Positions 28,155 through 39,095 of a DNA stretch of 64,000 bases are shown one piece after another. The notes beneath the pieces were generated by a model. That model saw only the letters and a program-made list of their open reading frames with translations, made no database searches and was not told where the DNA came from. The stretch lies in the sequence record OR539219.1. One strand, 5' to 3'. The position numbers and the translations under genes were made by a program. The first letter of the stretch is position 1. Each line of letters starts with the position of its first letter. The DNA comes from Escherichia phage vB-Eco-KMB39.

Positions 28155-28484
28155 TCAATTAGAAAATAAATTTATCCAAGATTGTTCTTTAATTAAAAAC
28201 GGCTCAGAATCATATGCCATTAAACTTTGCGTAATTAATCCTTTAAAAGGTCCATCAATAAATTCCATGGTAAAATATGGAATTTTATTCATTAGCCGTG
28301 CATTAGGAGCAGTACATAAAACTCTGCATCCTTTGAATACACCTTTTTGTAATTTGTATTGCTTGGGATAAAATTCGCTCAAAATGTTATTATTTGCTAA
28401 AATTTCAAAATGATTCACCAATTTATTTTTAATAGTTTTTGGCGAAAAATAAAGATATTCGAAAAGTTGCGTATCTGTCATCAT
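28155..28484 (-). CDS. Hypothetical protein
   Basis: ATG 28482-28484 in ATGA overlap with upstream stop; 109 aa. Confidence 0.45.
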
Positions 28485-29074
28485 TGCATTCCAATTACGA
28501 AAAACTGCGGACGAGTAATACCACCAATACAGCATTTACTATTGCAGCAATATTGCACAGTTTCAATATGAATATCGTAAATTTTATCCATATCAGGAGA
28601 TTTAACAGGCTCATCGATTATATACAAAATTCGAGAAAGCGATAAACCTCTGAACTTGCTACCTCTATTACCAACAAAACTACGGACAGAATCAGTAAAT
28701 AAACGGAATCGAATATCATCGCTAGAATAACGAGAAAATTCTTTTTTAATGCGGCCCACAGAAATTTTAGCGTAAGCTGAAGTATTAGAAAGAACAATAA
28801 CTGTTCCACCATCATACAACCAATTAGCGGCAAAATTAGTTACTGCAGTTGATTTACCGGATTGTCTGCCACCATCTAAACGAAGTGTACAATATTCTTT
28901 AAATAAATACGACGAATCAGGTACATAAAATCCACTATTACAAATTTCTTCTACTCTAGCGTCAGAATGGTGTGTAAAAGCATTCATCAGGGATAGATAA
29001 GGACCAGTTAAAAATGTTCTCATGTTATTTCTCTTAAGGTTTTTGGGCCATTCCGTGGCGCATGAATTGTCCAT
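28481..29074 (-). CDS. Small P-loop NTPase-like protein; start uncertain
   Basis: Walker A GGRQSGKST and Walker-B-like ILYIIDEP. Confidence 0.5.
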   Translation of the reverse strand: MDNSCATEWPKNLKRNNMRTFLTGPYLSLMNAFTHHSDARVEEICNSGFYVPDSSYLFKEYCTLRLDGGRQSGKSTAVTNFAANWLYDGGTVIVLSNTSAYAKISVGRIKKEFSRYSSDDIRFRLFTDSVRSFVGNRGSKFRGLSLSRILYIIDEPVKSPDMDKIYDIHIETVQYCCNSKCCIGGITRPQFFVIGMQ

Positions 29075-29167
29075 TTCTGTATTTACCCATTACCGCACTT
29101 GGGCTCGACCTTATTACAGGTTGGCGGGAATCCCTCATAGAATCATGAGGTCCAGGTTGTTCCCATA

Positions 29168-29641
29168 TTATTTGAACGATTTAACGTACTGAATAGAACC
29201 TTTACTATTTACAAAGGCAATTTTACCATTTTTATTATACATGGTAGCAGTACGCTGATAGCCATAAGTTTGCTTACCAGATTGATAACCAACTAATGCA
29301 AAATTATCTTCACCCATTTTATTCTGTTTAGCGCGAATGCGTTCATGACCATGTGCCATAAGAACCTTAGCATCACCAGTTACAATGGATCGACGAGTTT
29401 TTTCATCTTCAACTGTATTAACAAAGTCGTCAAATGAATCAAATTTAGCATGAGATTTATTATACAGTTTTCCATCTACTGCATAATTATATCCCTGTAC
29501 ATCCATCTCAACTTCTGTACCATCATCCAATACAGCAGTAATTTTCTGTCCTTTTTTAAATTTCAAAAGATCAGTAAAAGATTCAGCAATAATTTGAGAA
29601 TTAATAGCTGCTTCAGTGATAAATTCTTGATATGTTTTCAT
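29168..29641 (-). CDS. Internal head protein (capsid-targeting-sequence family)
   Basis: N-terminus MKTYQEFITEA matches the T4 internal-protein targeting sequence with an ITE/A prohead-protease site; adjacent to e as ipIII is in T4. Confidence 0.6.
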   Translation of the reverse strand: MKTYQEFITEAAINSQIIAESFTDLLKFKKGQKITAVLDDGTEVEMDVQGYNYAVDGKLYNKSHAKFDSFDDFVNTVEDEKTRRSIVTGDAKVLMAHGHERIRAKQNKMGEDNFALVGYQSGKQTYGYQRTATMYNKNGKIAFVNSKGSIQYVKSFK

Positions 29642-29729
29642 GTGTTTCCTTTAAATATTTTAATTAGTAATTTGTCTCTTCAAGCAACTGTGAATATACT
29701 ATCACAATTCTAGGAGAAAGTAAACAACT

Positions 29730-30260
<531 letters not shown>

Positions 30261-30716
30261 TTAAAAGAGGCTGTTCATTATTCGGTAAAGTGAAGGACCC
30301 ATCACATATTGCCACTGAGTACGAGGAATAAGAGCAAAAGCATCCATCTCTGGAATCATAACGCCATCTTTATTTTCAAAATAAGACTCGCAATGGCAAT
30401 TTCTGAACATCTCATGCTCTACTGGAATCGTATAATAAAATAACTGTAAGTCTTTATTACTAGAATATTTAAATACACCTAGGTCTTCTAGAAGGTCTGG
30501 ATTATAATTGCTAAAACCGGTCTCTTCTAAGCATTCTCTTTTTGCAGCTTCCAGTGCATTCAAATCAGAACTTTCTACACGGCCCTTTGGAATATCCCAA
30601 CGATGTGCCATCATTCCAGGCTTACGAGAACCAGTAACCCGACCCATAAATAAATCTTTATCTTCTGTCATAAAGATAATACCAGCTGATAGTGTTTTCA
30701 TTTTAATTTCCTGCAT
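30261..30716 (-). CDS. nudE: Nudix hydrolase
   Basis: 151 aa; Nudix box GRVESSDLNALEAAKRECLEETGF. Confidence 0.85.
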   Translation of the reverse strand: MQEIKMKTLSAGIIFMTEDKDLFMGRVTGSRKPGMMAHRWDIPKGRVESSDLNALEAAKRECLEETGFSNYNPDLLEDLGVFKYSSNKDLQLFYYTIPVEHEMFRNCHCESYFENKDGVMIPEMDAFALIPRTQWQYVMGPSLYRIMNSLF

Positions 30717-31186
30717 TCAGTGATAAAGTTATTTAAATTTTGAGTATATTTCTTTTCATCAAAAATCTTTTGTTGTCTGCGTAGCCGCCATGGCATTTCA
30801 ATGAACGTGTACCATATCCCAGATAATATTGCTGCTGTAAAAATATTAACAAGTATGGTTAAAAGAATCCAATCTCCTATTCTGTCCATTGGATTTTTTA
30901 TAAAAAAGTAAAATACGAATGATGTCACAGGAAGACTAATAATATACCACAGAATCATAATCTTATCTGTGAACCAATCAGCGTTCGTTAACTTAGCGCG
31001 ACCATTATAAATACACACGAATTTATCATCTGTTGCAGTAGATGGCTTAACTGGTTGATATCCCATTCTAAACTCCCTAATTAACAAATTTTTCATATCT
31101 TCGGAACAGCCATTCCAGTCAACTCTATCAACTGGAATGCCATCATCCCCATCATCTAAATCATACCAGCGAGTTTTTAAAATCAT
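30698..31186 (-). CDS. Membrane protein (paralog family, C-terminal FITECRKLK)
   Basis: Hydrophobic helices; C-terminal motif shared with next two ORFs. Confidence 0.5.
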   Translation of the reverse strand: MILKTRWYDLDDGDDGIPVDRVDWNGCSEDMKNLLIREFRMGYQPVKPSTATDDKFVCIYNGRAKLTNADWFTDKIMILWYIISLPVTSFVFYFFIKNPMDRIGDWILLTILVNIFTAAILSGIWYTFIEMPWRLRRQQKIFDEKKYTQNLNNFITECRKLK

Positions 31187-33711: not shown

Positions 33712-33766
33712 AACAGTTTCCTCAAATTATAGGCTCATAATATCTCAATCATGAGCCTATGTAAAC

Positions 33767-34030
33767 TTATTTCATATTATTAAAATATTCTTCTGCGATT
33801 TCGTCGTTATCATGGTAAACTTTAGAAGACAGTTTAACATAACCTTCAGCAATGAACATGTTAATCACAACCTTTACAGTATACCACTGACCATCTTCAT
33901 TACCCATTACTGCGTAAGTTTCAAACATCGGATGATCAGGACCGATAACTTTAATATCATTCACTGTACGACCGAAATCTTCTGAAACGCATTTCATAAA
34001 GAAGTTGAACAGTTCGCCGTAATTATCCAT
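33767..34030 (-). CDS. Small hypothetical protein
   Basis: ATG 34028-34030 with GGAG SD downstream of early promoter. Confidence 0.5.
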   Translation of the reverse strand: MDNYGELFNFFMKCVSEDFGRTVNDIKVIGPDHPMFETYAVMGNEDGQWYTVKVVINMFIAEGYVKLSSKVYHDNDEIAEEYFNNMK

Positions 34031-34074
34031 TTCATTCTCCAAGTTGTTTTTCTGTATCAGTAGTTGATAGTTGT

Positions 34075-34104
34075 ATAGTACCATGGAAGAACGGGGATGT
34101 AAAC
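34075..34104 (-). promoter_or_regulatory. T4-type early promoter (GTTTAC ... TACTAT); approximate
   Basis: Conserved module as at 17287, 18726, 22740. Confidence 0.55.
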
Positions 34105-34241
34105 CGTTTTGTGAAAAAATTTTTAAAAAGTTTTAGGGAATTCTAGGGCAGGGATGGGCAATTAAAGGATAGGATAATATATTATAAAGGGTATAAACTA
34201 AATGATGCCTAGAGAGGTCCAGAAAGGCCTAGATATCAAAA

Positions 34242-34265
34242 AGCCCCAACCTTTCGGTCGGGGCT
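34242..34265 (-). terminator. Intrinsic terminator hairpin (copy A of a repeated hairpin); approximate
   Basis: AGCCCCGACC-GAAA-GGTTGGGGCT followed by U-run on minus strand, directly after stop of 34272-34745. Confidence 0.55.
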
Positions 34266-34271
34266 AAAATG

Positions 34272-34745
34272 TTATTTGATTTGTTTAGCAGACCAAATGC
34301 GGTCTTTGATGATTTTTTGGATGTCTTCAACATACTCAAGAGAGTGAGCATGTGGGTTATCTTTGAAACTATAAGCACGAGCTAGCTTTTGGCCTTCGGT
34401 TTTGATTACTAAAAGCTCTTTAAGGATAGCTTCATATTTGGAGATAATTCCTTTAACAATATTTTTCTCTTGTGCGACTTTAGGATCTGCTTTAGGAGCA
34501 GGTTTACCCGAAGCCTTTGCAAAAGCAGCGCCAGTAGCAACTAAACTTTTCCAGGCCATACTAACCGCATTTCCTGTAAATCCTTCTGCTTTCATGTCGC
34601 GAGCAAATTGGAATCGCGATTCGTCAGAAGCATCTTTATAAGAATATTTACCCGCTGCAATGGCTGCTTTTGCGACAGCTTGAATTTCGGTGCTAGATGC
34701 TTCATTTAACACCGCTTCATTTAAAAATTGAGTATATGATTTCAT
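34272..34745 (-). CDS. Internal-protein-like protein with capsid-targeting-type N-terminus
   Basis: From ATG 34743-34745 (SD AGGAAAT): MKSYTQFLNEA... resembles the CTS; Ala/Lys-rich; 157 aa. Confidence 0.55.
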   Translation of the reverse strand: MKSYTQFLNEAVLNEASSTEIQAVAKAAIAAGKYSYKDASDESRFQFARDMKAEGFTGNAVSMAWKSLVATGAAFAKASGKPAPKADPKVAQEKNIVKGIISKYEAILKELLVIKTEGQKLARAYSFKDNPHAHSLEYVEDIQKIIKDRIWSAKQIK

Positions 34746-34798
34746 CTTATTTCCTGTTTTAATTCGTGGATTTAATATACTAATATTTATACTAAAAA

Positions 34799-34822
34799 GC
34801 CCCAACCTTTCGGTCGGGGCTA
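34799..34822 (-). terminator. Intrinsic terminator hairpin (copy B, identical to 34242-34265); approximate
   Basis: Same 24-nt hairpin plus A-run on plus side; ends the tRNA/small RNA transcript. Confidence 0.55.
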
Positions 34823-34864
34823 AGCCTTGCGGCAACCTTGTCGGGGTTCCACCTGCTAAGGCAA

Positions 34865-35135
34865 GTGTTTGTACGAAACGCCGGGATTCGAACCCGGTTA
34901 TTAAGTAGTTGACGCTACTCAATATTTTTAAAAGGCCATATCTCGACCATATCCGAACGTTCCGTCAAAAACGCTACTCGGCTTATGGCAAAGATATTTC
35001 CTCGAATCGATAATTCGGTGCGCCGTTTCTGCTGTGATATAAGGGGACATTAACAAAACATAAAGATTTATTAATGCCAGTCCTTAAACAGGGAACATCA
35101 GTCCGACGACTTGCCGGTAGCGACCCGGCTTCTTG
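34865..35135 (-). ncRNA. Possible small stable RNA / tRNA-like region downstream of tRNA-Arg
   Basis: Non-coding, between tRNA-Arg and terminator; contains tRNA-like T-arm CCGGGTTCGAATCCCGG near 34884-34900 but no full cloverleaf was resolved. Confidence 0.25.
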
Positions 35136-35639: not shown

Positions 35640-35653
35640 AAATATTTATATAT

Positions 35654-36262
35654 TTATATATTGTTAATTTGATTTAGAATTCTTTTTGCTTGAGTATGAC
35701 TTACGCCAATATGCTTAGCATATTTAGATAATTCGCCGCGTTTAGAAAAATCATATAATTTAGAAATTTCTATTCTTCTTTTTCTTTCATCCGCAGAAAC
35801 TTTTGCTTCGTTTGCTTTTGCTATTTTACGTTTAGCTTCTTGAGAATGAGTTTTACCAGCAAAGCCATTCTTCATTAATCCATTTGAAGACCATCCTTTT
35901 AATTTTCCGTTAGAATGTGCCTTTTTAACACCCAATGAAATTAATTCGCGTTGCTGATCTGTCATAGGATAATTATTTATATGATCCCATCCACCTTCAC
36001 CTCCAAGTTTTAAATTATACACATCTGGTCTATTTAAAAACTCTTCTGTGACAATATTTTTCTCGGCTTCAAGCATAGATTCTTTATCATCAAAATACTC
36101 TAATATTTCTTTAGAAAAATTTTCTATACCATATTTATCTTGGGCTCTTTTTAATAATTTACCAGAACCCATATATCCATCATCTAAATTTTCGGTAGAA
36201 TGCACACCAATATAAATTTTATTATTAATTTTATTTGTTATTTTATAAAGATAAAAATGCAT
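35654..36262 (-). mobile_element. segB: GIY-YIG homing endonuclease SegB-like, within the tRNA cluster
   Basis: N-terminal GIY-YIG motif (FYLYKITNKINNKIYIGVHS); sits between two tRNA sub-clusters as T4 segB does; start taken at ATG 36260-36262 (SD AGGGA), track ORF extends to 36304. Confidence 0.8.
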
Positions 36263-36308
36263 ATCAGTCCCTAATAAAGAACTGAGCGTCTCACGACGAG
36301 TCATAAAT

Positions 36309-38010: not shown

Positions 38011-38038
38011 TTTATTCTCCTCAGTAGTTGATAGGGTA

Positions 38039-38068
38039 ATAGTATCACAACTAAAACCCTATGTAAAC
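38039..38068 (-). promoter_or_regulatory. T4-type early promoter (GTTTAC ... TACTAT) with A/T-rich upstream element; approximate
   Basis: Module near-identical to the one at 38369-38398, including downstream ATGTAAACAACTTTGTGAAATTATTTTAAATC. Confidence 0.55.
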
Positions 38069-38080
38069 AACTTTGTGAAA

Positions 38081-38338
38081 TTATTTTAAATCTTCTAATC
38101 GTTTCTTCATCTTAGAACCATTTTTAGCAATTTCTCCTGCATCGGAGCATAACGCTAAAAGTGCTTTAACTTTAGTTTGGTCTCCTTTAAAAGACGAAGG
38201 ATCGACCGCAGCAGCAAGTTCTTTAATACGAGAGAAAAGACGCTCAGCTTCAGCTAAAGCCATTCCAAGCTTTACTTCCATACCGTGGGAAGATTCGGTG
38301 ATAGTAGTTTTTGTAGCAAACTCTTTGAAAGTTTTCAT
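38081..38338 (-). CDS. Internal head protein-like (CTS-bearing) at the T4 ipI locus position
   Basis: 85 aa, N-terminus MKTFKEFATKTTITE/S resembles the internal-protein targeting sequence; located just upstream of 57B. Confidence 0.55.
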   Translation of the reverse strand: MKTFKEFATKTTITESSHGMEVKLGMALAEAERLFSRIKELAAAVDPSSFKGDQTKVKALLALCSDAGEIAKNGSKMKKRLEDLK

Positions 38339-38368
38339 TTTATTTTCCTAATTAATTTTGATGAGGTA

Positions 38369-38398
38369 ATAGTATCACTACCTCATCAGCATGTAAAC
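38369..38398 (-). promoter_or_regulatory. T4-type early promoter; approximate
   Basis: GTTTAC-N18-TACTAT; -10 embedded in inverted repeat GATGAGGTA...TACCTCATC. Confidence 0.55.
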
Positions 38399-38410
38399 AA
38401 CTTTGTGAAA

Positions 38411-39095
<685 letters not shown>

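Follow-up and report, generated by a model that had tools for sequence, protein, structure and literature searches.

The closest described systems to the gene that we report on here are the internal proteins of phage T4 and the Ip4 (IpIV) proteins of other T-even phages. T4 IPI* (Ip1), an inhibitor of GmrSD-CT596 with an NMR structure, is small, basic, directed to the head by a capsid-targeting sequence (CTS), processed by gp21 and injected, and we take it as the paradigm for the action that we propose for Ip4. IPII (Ip2) inhibits GmrSD/BrxU of ECOR21, and the target of IPIII (Ip3) is the two-gene GmrSD of ECOR17, a system that restricts T2, which has Ip4 and no IPIII. Each of Ip1, Ip2 and Ip3 inhibits one GmrSD variant with no cross-protection, and the authors of that study proposed that all Ip-locus proteins target GmrSD variants (PMC12373910). 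IPIII without its CTS is active in the cytoplasm (PMC9391042). Because they enter the cytoplasm with the DNA, ahead of the expression of any phage gene, internal proteins act as first-strike counter-defences.

The CTS has been mapped in IPIII, where residues 4 and 7 are the determinants of targeting and residues 8 and 10 those of processing, and gp21 cleaves after L/I-x-E (PMC9026906). GenBank X04567 records the IpIII and IpII precursors from residue -10 to the end. Ip4/IpIV is on record from T2, K3, RB14, AR1 and PST as the same protein (98–100% identity) in the same place downstream of the lysozyme gene e, and we saw no substantive difference between these copies and the one described below.

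The whole stretch of DNA that we analysed (64 kb, hereafter the window) is a Tequatrovirus (T-even) segment that is T2/RB14-like. Complete genomes that are nearly identical to the window are Tequatrovirus; the region 28400–30800 has 99.5% identity with Escherichia phages vB_EcoM_G4507 and ECP52 and is matched by 833 phage records. The gene order is T4-like, running from the vs genes to e, the tRNA cluster, 57B, the baseplate genes and gene 17, which forms the window's end. The window does not reach gp21 and gp22, whose genes are core genes in Tequatrovirus (PMC9026906). The features around ip4 are:

28481–29074, minus strand: vs.8 homologue, downstream edge of the internal-protein hotspot (phrog_1488, E 2.7e-77; synteny with T4, RB14 and PST)
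29168–29641, minus strand: ip4 (ipIV) CDS, intact, 157-aa precursor (ORF, DUF7412, phrog_3155 and identity to Ip4)
29171–29581, minus strand: predicted mature Ip4 body, residues 21–157 (AlphaFold2 model)
29582–29611, minus strand: codons 11–20, variable linker ending in a putative second gp21 site, I-A-E↓S (alignment and motif scan)
29612–29641, minus strand: codons 1–10, MKTYQEFITE, CTS ending in the first gp21 site, I-T-E↓A (determinants mapped in IPIII; E10 invariant)
29642–29729, minus strand: e–ip4 intergenic region with an early-type promoter and a Shine-Dalgarno sequence (from the sequence)
29730–30224, minus strand: lysozyme gene e, upstream neighbour of ip4 (ORF and annotation of homologous records)
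30251–30258, minus strand: late promoter TATAAATA 5' of e (promoter motif)

ip4 starts 88 nt downstream of e, a gap of 93 nt separates its end from the vs.8 homologue, and it is the sole ORF with a CTS between the two. The same interval in T4 holds ipIII, ipII and denV. With tblastn, neither denV nor the bodies of ipI, ipII and ipIII were found in the 64 kb, where the only matches were weak or confined to the CTS; ip4 replaces the ipIII-ipII(-denV) block. A preliminary description of this DNA had reported a single gene with the leader MKTYQEFITEA next to e, in place of T4 ipII and ipIII, and both points hold for what is an intact ORF of 157 codons.

Other phages fill this slot differently. PST has ipIII and ipIV, with its ipIV in the same position as ip4 in the window. 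A Salmonella phage (159.9 kb; L007 471–3739) has three CTS genes and denV, arranged as an Ip5-like CTS ORF, denV, an Ip4 homologue and a further CTS ORF; one more CTS ORF lies upstream of e, for a total of four CTS-leader ORFs around e. denV is also found beside Ip4 in MLF4. The absence of denV from T2 is the classical explanation of its greater sensitivity to UV compared with T4.

The 93-nt spacer on the 3' side of ip4 (29075–29167) is apparently richer in G+C than its surroundings and includes a hairpin (29133–29150) with no T-run. The annotation of G4507 has a 34-aa ORF in this spacer that looks spurious. Rfam found only tRNAs in the whole window and nothing in the spacer.

We are practically certain that the product of 29168–29641 is Ip4. 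The ORF has an ATG start and its protein begins MKTYQEFITEAAINS. Over residues 1–157 it aligns with positions 1–158 of Pfam DUF7412 (E 2.5e-95, 317.3 bits, cut-off 27), and it matches phrog_3155, annotated as 'internal virion protein', with an E-value of 2.3e-101. A search of NCBIfam gave nothing above the cut-offs. Identity to Ip4/IpIV of T2, RB14, AR1, GiZh and ACG-C40 is 99.4–100% (99.4% for T2, RB14, AR1 and GiZh), and K3 Ip4 (Q38388, in BFVD) is 98% identical, with a model that superposes on ours with a TM-score of 0.96. Ip4 is a protein that was named long ago and is already known; the reported feature does exist, but it is an ordinary one.

In the phage collection, 470 records have Ip4, compared with 261 for the body of T4 IpIII and 198 for that of T4 IpII, so the T4 arrangement is the minority state. 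Within Tequatrovirus the protein is near-invariant (at least 95% identity in 306 of the 470 records). The family makes up 14 clusters among 5.8 billion proteins, and because a profile search of 1.84 billion representative proteins gave just seven matches, three of them informative, we regard it as very narrow.

In the closest genome, G4507, ip4 is split into two CDSs (L001 10769–11243), while the copy in the window is intact. The break comes from one extra A (a +1 frameshift) in a run of six A (window 29553–29558), and the remainder is identical. The extra A may mark a true pseudogene, or it may be a sequencing error in the homopolymer; the frameshift is compatible with a dispensable, host-specific accessory gene.

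T4 IPIII and Ip4 share the locus, a basic mature protein and the MKTYQEFI-x-E form of the CTS, in which the gp21 site follows Glu10. The likeness includes the promoter, the Shine-Dalgarno sequence and the leader, as the stretch from the end of e to codon 8 of ip4 is ~96% identical to e–ipIII of T4 and PST. The body of IPIII, however, is unrelated to Ip4 (E > 1), and mature IPIII has 183 residues. IPII shares the hotspot and nine of the ten leader residues, but its body without the leader is unrelated to Ip4 (E 0.08) and ipII is absent from the window. We considered a distant homology between Ip4 and IPII and rejected it, because the 31–33% identity over 77–79 residues stems from the common leader.

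The promoter between e and ip4 has a -35 box TTTACT (29719–29724) and a -10 box TAGTAT (29696–29701) with N17 spacing, and the Shine-Dalgarno sequence is AAGGAAA (29645–29651). No late promoter TATAAATA stands immediately 5' of ip4, so late expression would need read-through from the late promoter of e at 30251. The similarity to T4 and PST e–ipIII ends just after the leader codons, and we therefore see the replacement as a cassette swap that reuses the ipIII expression signals and CTS. The sequence shows that ip4 uses the promoter, the ribosome-binding site and the leader codons of T4 ipIII.

All of the CTS determinants mapped in IPIII are present in Ip4 (Y4, F7, I8 and E10). In an alignment of 13 family members, both E10 and E20 are invariant and the ten residues between them vary; at the second site, every member has I, L or M in position -3. 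This pattern suggests a two-step propeptide with a predicted mature N-terminus at Ser21, and the mature protein (residues 21–157) is computed to have a mass of 15.5 kDa, a pI of 9.3 and a net charge of about +5. By every criterion that can be tested on sequence, Ip4 is a T4-type internal protein, and we consider it very likely to be packaged and processed.

One could still read the CTS as a mere recombination scar from the ipIII leader, on a protein that is neither packaged nor injected: homology to T4 e–ipIII stops after the leader codons, and the leader could have come passively with the promoter. We find this hardly credible. The leader, E10 and the second site at E20 are kept in every family member that is at least 60% identical, and ten residues of the IPIII leader suffice to package foreign proteins (PMC9026906). 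In addition, three distant relatives (35–37% identity) bear another, lineage-specific leader, MNFEQFLNES, ahead of the same body. Distant relatives thus carry the leader of their own lineage, so the Ip4 body moves as a packaged module.

A 381-kb viral contig from IMG/VR has three adjacent leader ORFs (L009 1768–3414), with the leaders MNFEQFLNEA, MSFTNFLNEI and MNFEQFLNES. One of the three is the 37%-identical relative of Ip4. The trio looks like the internal-protein cluster of a T4-like phage that is much larger and has a CTS dialect of its own.

The window has three CTS ORFs in all, at 29168–29641 (ip4), 34272–34745 (the phrog_2280 gene) and 38081–38338 (ip5), and the latter two had also been listed in the preliminary description. 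A permissive CTS regular expression applied to the six-frame translation of the 64 kb matched exactly these three ORFs, whereas 200 composition-preserving shuffles gave 0.065 matches on average and never more than 1. The targeting determinants are Y4/F7 in Ip4 and in the phrog_2280 protein and F4/F7 in Ip5. For the gp21 motif we took the end of a propeptide of 10–19 residues as the criterion of membership; L/I-x-E motifs are found at ITE10 and IAE20 in Ip4, LNE10 and LNE15 in the phrog_2280 protein, and ITE15 in Ip5. The predicted mature forms have a pI of 9.2–9.6 and masses of 7.5–15.5 kDa, and the T4 internal proteins have a pI of 9.0–9.65. Ip4 lies in the e–vs.8 hotspot and Ip5 adjoins 57B, while the phrog_2280 gene is at neither classical locus.

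With the CTS removed, none of the three bodies is significantly similar to IPI, IPII or IPIII of T4 (best E 0.08), and sequence and profile searches against the PDB gave no credible match for any of them. The preliminary description had called all three bodies unrecognised. That stands as far as T4 IPI, IPII and IPIII are concerned, but Ip4 and Ip5 already have names and the phrog_2280 protein alone is largely unrecognised. It had also said that high identity to T4 IPIII or IPI would leave no novelty; the stripped bodies are unlike IPI, IPII and IPIII, so that identity is literally absent, and the novelty goes instead through the match to other named internal proteins. There is no new kind of element among the three.

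AlphaFold2 gave an unusable model (pLDDT 50.7) for full-length Ip4 with 13 close homologues. With the propeptide removed and three distant relatives in the alignment, mature Ip4 was modelled with a pLDDT of 91.7 and a pTM of 0.87. The model is an alpha/beta protein that has a beta-hairpin at the N-terminus, three helices, and a sheet of four strands at the C-terminus. Foldseek found nothing in the PDB at E <= 0.001, and K3 Ip4 was the only match in the fold search of BFVD. Since nothing matched beyond Ip4 itself in these two collections, the modelled fold appears to be an orphan. One match, to the designed repeat protein 7on6 (E 1.9e-4), was rejected: no stretch passes on its own and the family profile misses 7on6. 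Neither in sequence nor in fold does the Ip4 body resemble IPI*, IPII, IPIII or any known inhibitor.

These properties bear on the idea that Ip4 is mainly a structural or charge-neutralising protein, lysine-rich, which fills the scaffold core and aids assembly and the condensation or packaging of DNA, with no specific host target. Mature Ip4 is indeed basic and its sequence is near-invariant within Tequatrovirus. In T4 without IPIII the rate of head assembly is halved and the burst is ~40%, and lysines of internal proteins touch DNA phosphates (PMC9026906; PMC3012670). However, unrelated bodies fill the slot in different phages, ip4 of G4507 is frameshifted, and a purely structural need would not select a specific fold that is kept across relatives at 35–37% identity. 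All three T4 internal proteins also have specific anti-restriction targets. We judge a mainly structural role to be quite unlikely.

Our preferred reading is that Ip4 is a counter-defence protein that is packaged, cleaved and injected, and we give this explanation as a whole a probability of roughly 0.6. ip4 would be one allele in a set of interchangeable internal-protein cassettes that occupy the space between e and vs.8 in T-even phages. Following the IPIII paradigm, MKTYQEFITE would let the precursor dock on the gp22 scaffolding core within the prohead. gp21 would then cut after Glu10 and probably again after Glu20, as the conserved L/I/M-x-E sites suggest, and this would free a basic 15.5-kDa alpha/beta protein that is kept in the head with the DNA. 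Ip4 would be injected with the DNA and, by analogy, would most likely block one early-acting, DNA-targeting host defence in the cytoplasm. The anti-defence role taken by itself, which we propose by analogy with the T4 proteins, has in our view slightly better than even odds. A search of the accessible literature found no experiment on Ip4, virion and injection data included.

The leading candidate for the target, again by analogy with T4 Ip1–3, would be a GmrSD-like type IV enzyme that attacks glucosyl-hydroxymethylcytosine DNA and belongs to a subtype outside those that have been screened. We hold to a target in the GmrSD family only tentatively, at less than even odds, and the evidence that counts against it is substantial. 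When ip4-10 were supplied in trans against the tested GmrSD variants there was no reproducible rescue (PMC12373910, Supplementary Fig. 9). We looked for the protein sequences of the screened ip genes in the supplements of Silas et al. and did not find them. T2 carries Ip4 and Ip5, and it is restricted by GmrSD-ECOR17 and GmrSD-ECOR21 (PMC12373910). The near-invariance of Ip4 in Tequatrovirus is also unlike the fast evolution that is expected at an arms-race interface, though its turnover by presence and absence is high. The preliminary description had named the three CTS proteins prime candidates for anti-restriction functions. This is the mainstream hypothesis, given the precedent of Ip1–3 (PMC12373910), but the published GmrSD screen of ip4-10 was negative.

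Ip4 may instead be an injected counter-defence with a target other than GmrSD, such as a modification-dependent nuclease, a DNA glycosylase that acts on glucosyl-hmC (Brig-type) or another first-response system. [quoted passage not shown] Yet the screen sampled a vastly diverse family, in which representatives of 15 groups were synthesised and tested and eight restricted T-even phages (PMC12373910), and no positive evidence ties Ip4 to a non-GmrSD system. We consider a non-GmrSD target rather unlikely.

The injected counter-defence that we prefer for Ip4 would have parallels at two other loci, where ip5 and the phrog_2280 gene would be cassettes of the same sort. The features at ip5 are:

38028–38096, minus strand: second PeSL-type repeat, over the ip5 stop codon and just downstream (family D1; 84% identical to the upstream copy)
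38081–38338, minus strand: ip5 CDS, 85 aa, with an IPI-type leader MKTFKEF...ITE↓S (100% identical to RB15 Ip5)
38358–38426, minus strand: PeSL-type early-promoter/stem-loop repeat upstream of ip5 (family D1)

The product of ip5 begins MKTFKEFATKTTITE. The PeSL concept and its consensus, TTTACW-N17-TAYWAT, have been described for T4-like phages (PMC4122927; Arbiol 2010; Comeau 2014), and the 69-nt repeats that bracket ip5 fit the consensus likewise. The 69-nt element is present in four copies in the window (33726–33794, 34064–34132, 38028–38096 and 38358–38426), of which two bracket ip5 and two are around the e.8 homologue. The phrog_2280 gene is bracketed instead by 35-nt terminator repeats, and homology to RB14 breaks at the edges of its cassette. 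ip4 differs from both in that its upstream junction is not in a stem-loop but within the coding sequence, directly behind the CTS. The flanking repeats of ip5 and the phrog_2280 gene match the modular shuffling known in T4-like phages. The features at the phrog_2280 gene are:

34233–34267, minus strand: downstream copy of a 35-nt terminator direct repeat (family D5, 94% identity; hairpin and T-run)
34272–34745, minus strand: gene for the phrog_2280 protein, 157 aa, with a CTS-like leader MKSYTQFLNE↓AVLNE↓AS (phrog_2280, E 2.9e-60)
34750–34755, minus strand: Shine-Dalgarno sequence AGGAAA (from the sequence)
34784–34791, minus strand: perfect T4 late promoter TATAAATA, 38 nt 5' of the ATG
34789–34823, minus strand: upstream copy of the 35-nt terminator direct repeat (family D5)

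This product begins MKSYTQFLNEAVLNEA. PHROG 2280 is listed as 'unknown function' and has 511 phage records; the annotations that we sampled were all 'hypothetical' except for one UniRef entry from a Klebsiella phage, 'Internal head protein'. The leader of the family is MK[ST]Y.[EQ]FL.E...L.E↓AS, in which F7, E15, A16 and S17 vary little or not at all, and the predicted mature form has a pI of 9.6. An alternative reading that extends the ORF to a TTG (216 aa, 34272–34922) was rejected, since the late promoter, the Shine-Dalgarno sequence and the conserved leader favour the ATG at 34745.

At the equivalent site T4 has one copy of the terminator (an exact match) between e.8 and rnaC, and the gene is absent. 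A Klebsiella phage has a homologue downstream of tRNA genes with the same layout of terminator, TATAAATA, Shine-Dalgarno sequence and ATG, but the sequence of the terminator stem differs. The RB14 allele of PHROG 2280 is 26% identical and begins MKTYAEFLTEA. At the DNA level, the homology of the window to RB14 is interrupted at 34288 and 34785, which are the edges of the cassette. We believe that the phrog_2280 protein is probably an under-annotated internal (injected) protein at a third locus, going by its leader and its setting; recent literature counts two Ip loci (PMC12373910).

A metagenomic protein of 182 aa (P0026) has the phrog_2280 N-domain (residues 2–55) fused to segments that match PHROGs 13919, 3720 and 31819, the last two of which overlap. 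This fusion suggests that the family consists of a domain with CTS and carrier functions and exchangeable C-terminal modules.

Farther along the tRNA region, a 216-aa homing-endonuclease ORF of the GIY-YIG/NUMOD3 type (seg-like; 35654–36304, minus strand) lies between tRNA-Ser and tRNA-Gly. It occupies exactly the place of the tRNA-Pro gene in RB14 (RB14 L003 8097–8176 is replaced by window 35641–36303). The window has nine tRNA genes, and Pro is missing from the set.

A broader proposal is that the phrog_2280 gene represents a third Ip locus, a terminator-flanked late cassette between e.8 and rnaC or the tRNA genes with a conserved N-domain and a swappable C-domain, and that its product acts with Ip4 and Ip5 to neutralise defences other than the tested GmrSD systems. 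We think that this is somewhat unlikely in its entirety. If the proposal is true, both the repertoire of injected proteins in T-even phages and the range of their targets would be wider.

The three internal proteins of T4 are subtype-specific GmrSD inhibitors, and Ip4 and Ip5 are commoner than IpII and IpIII in the T-even phages that have been sequenced. Three practical leads follow from the analysis: a confident model of mature Ip4 with no known analogue, a predicted second cleavage site in its propeptide, and a widespread 'hypothetical' family, phrog_2280, whose members are probably injected and lie at a locus beyond the two recognised Ip loci. Host range on wild strains of E. coli, Shigella and Klebsiella, a matter of relevance to phage therapy, should be easier to predict once the internal proteins of a phage are known.
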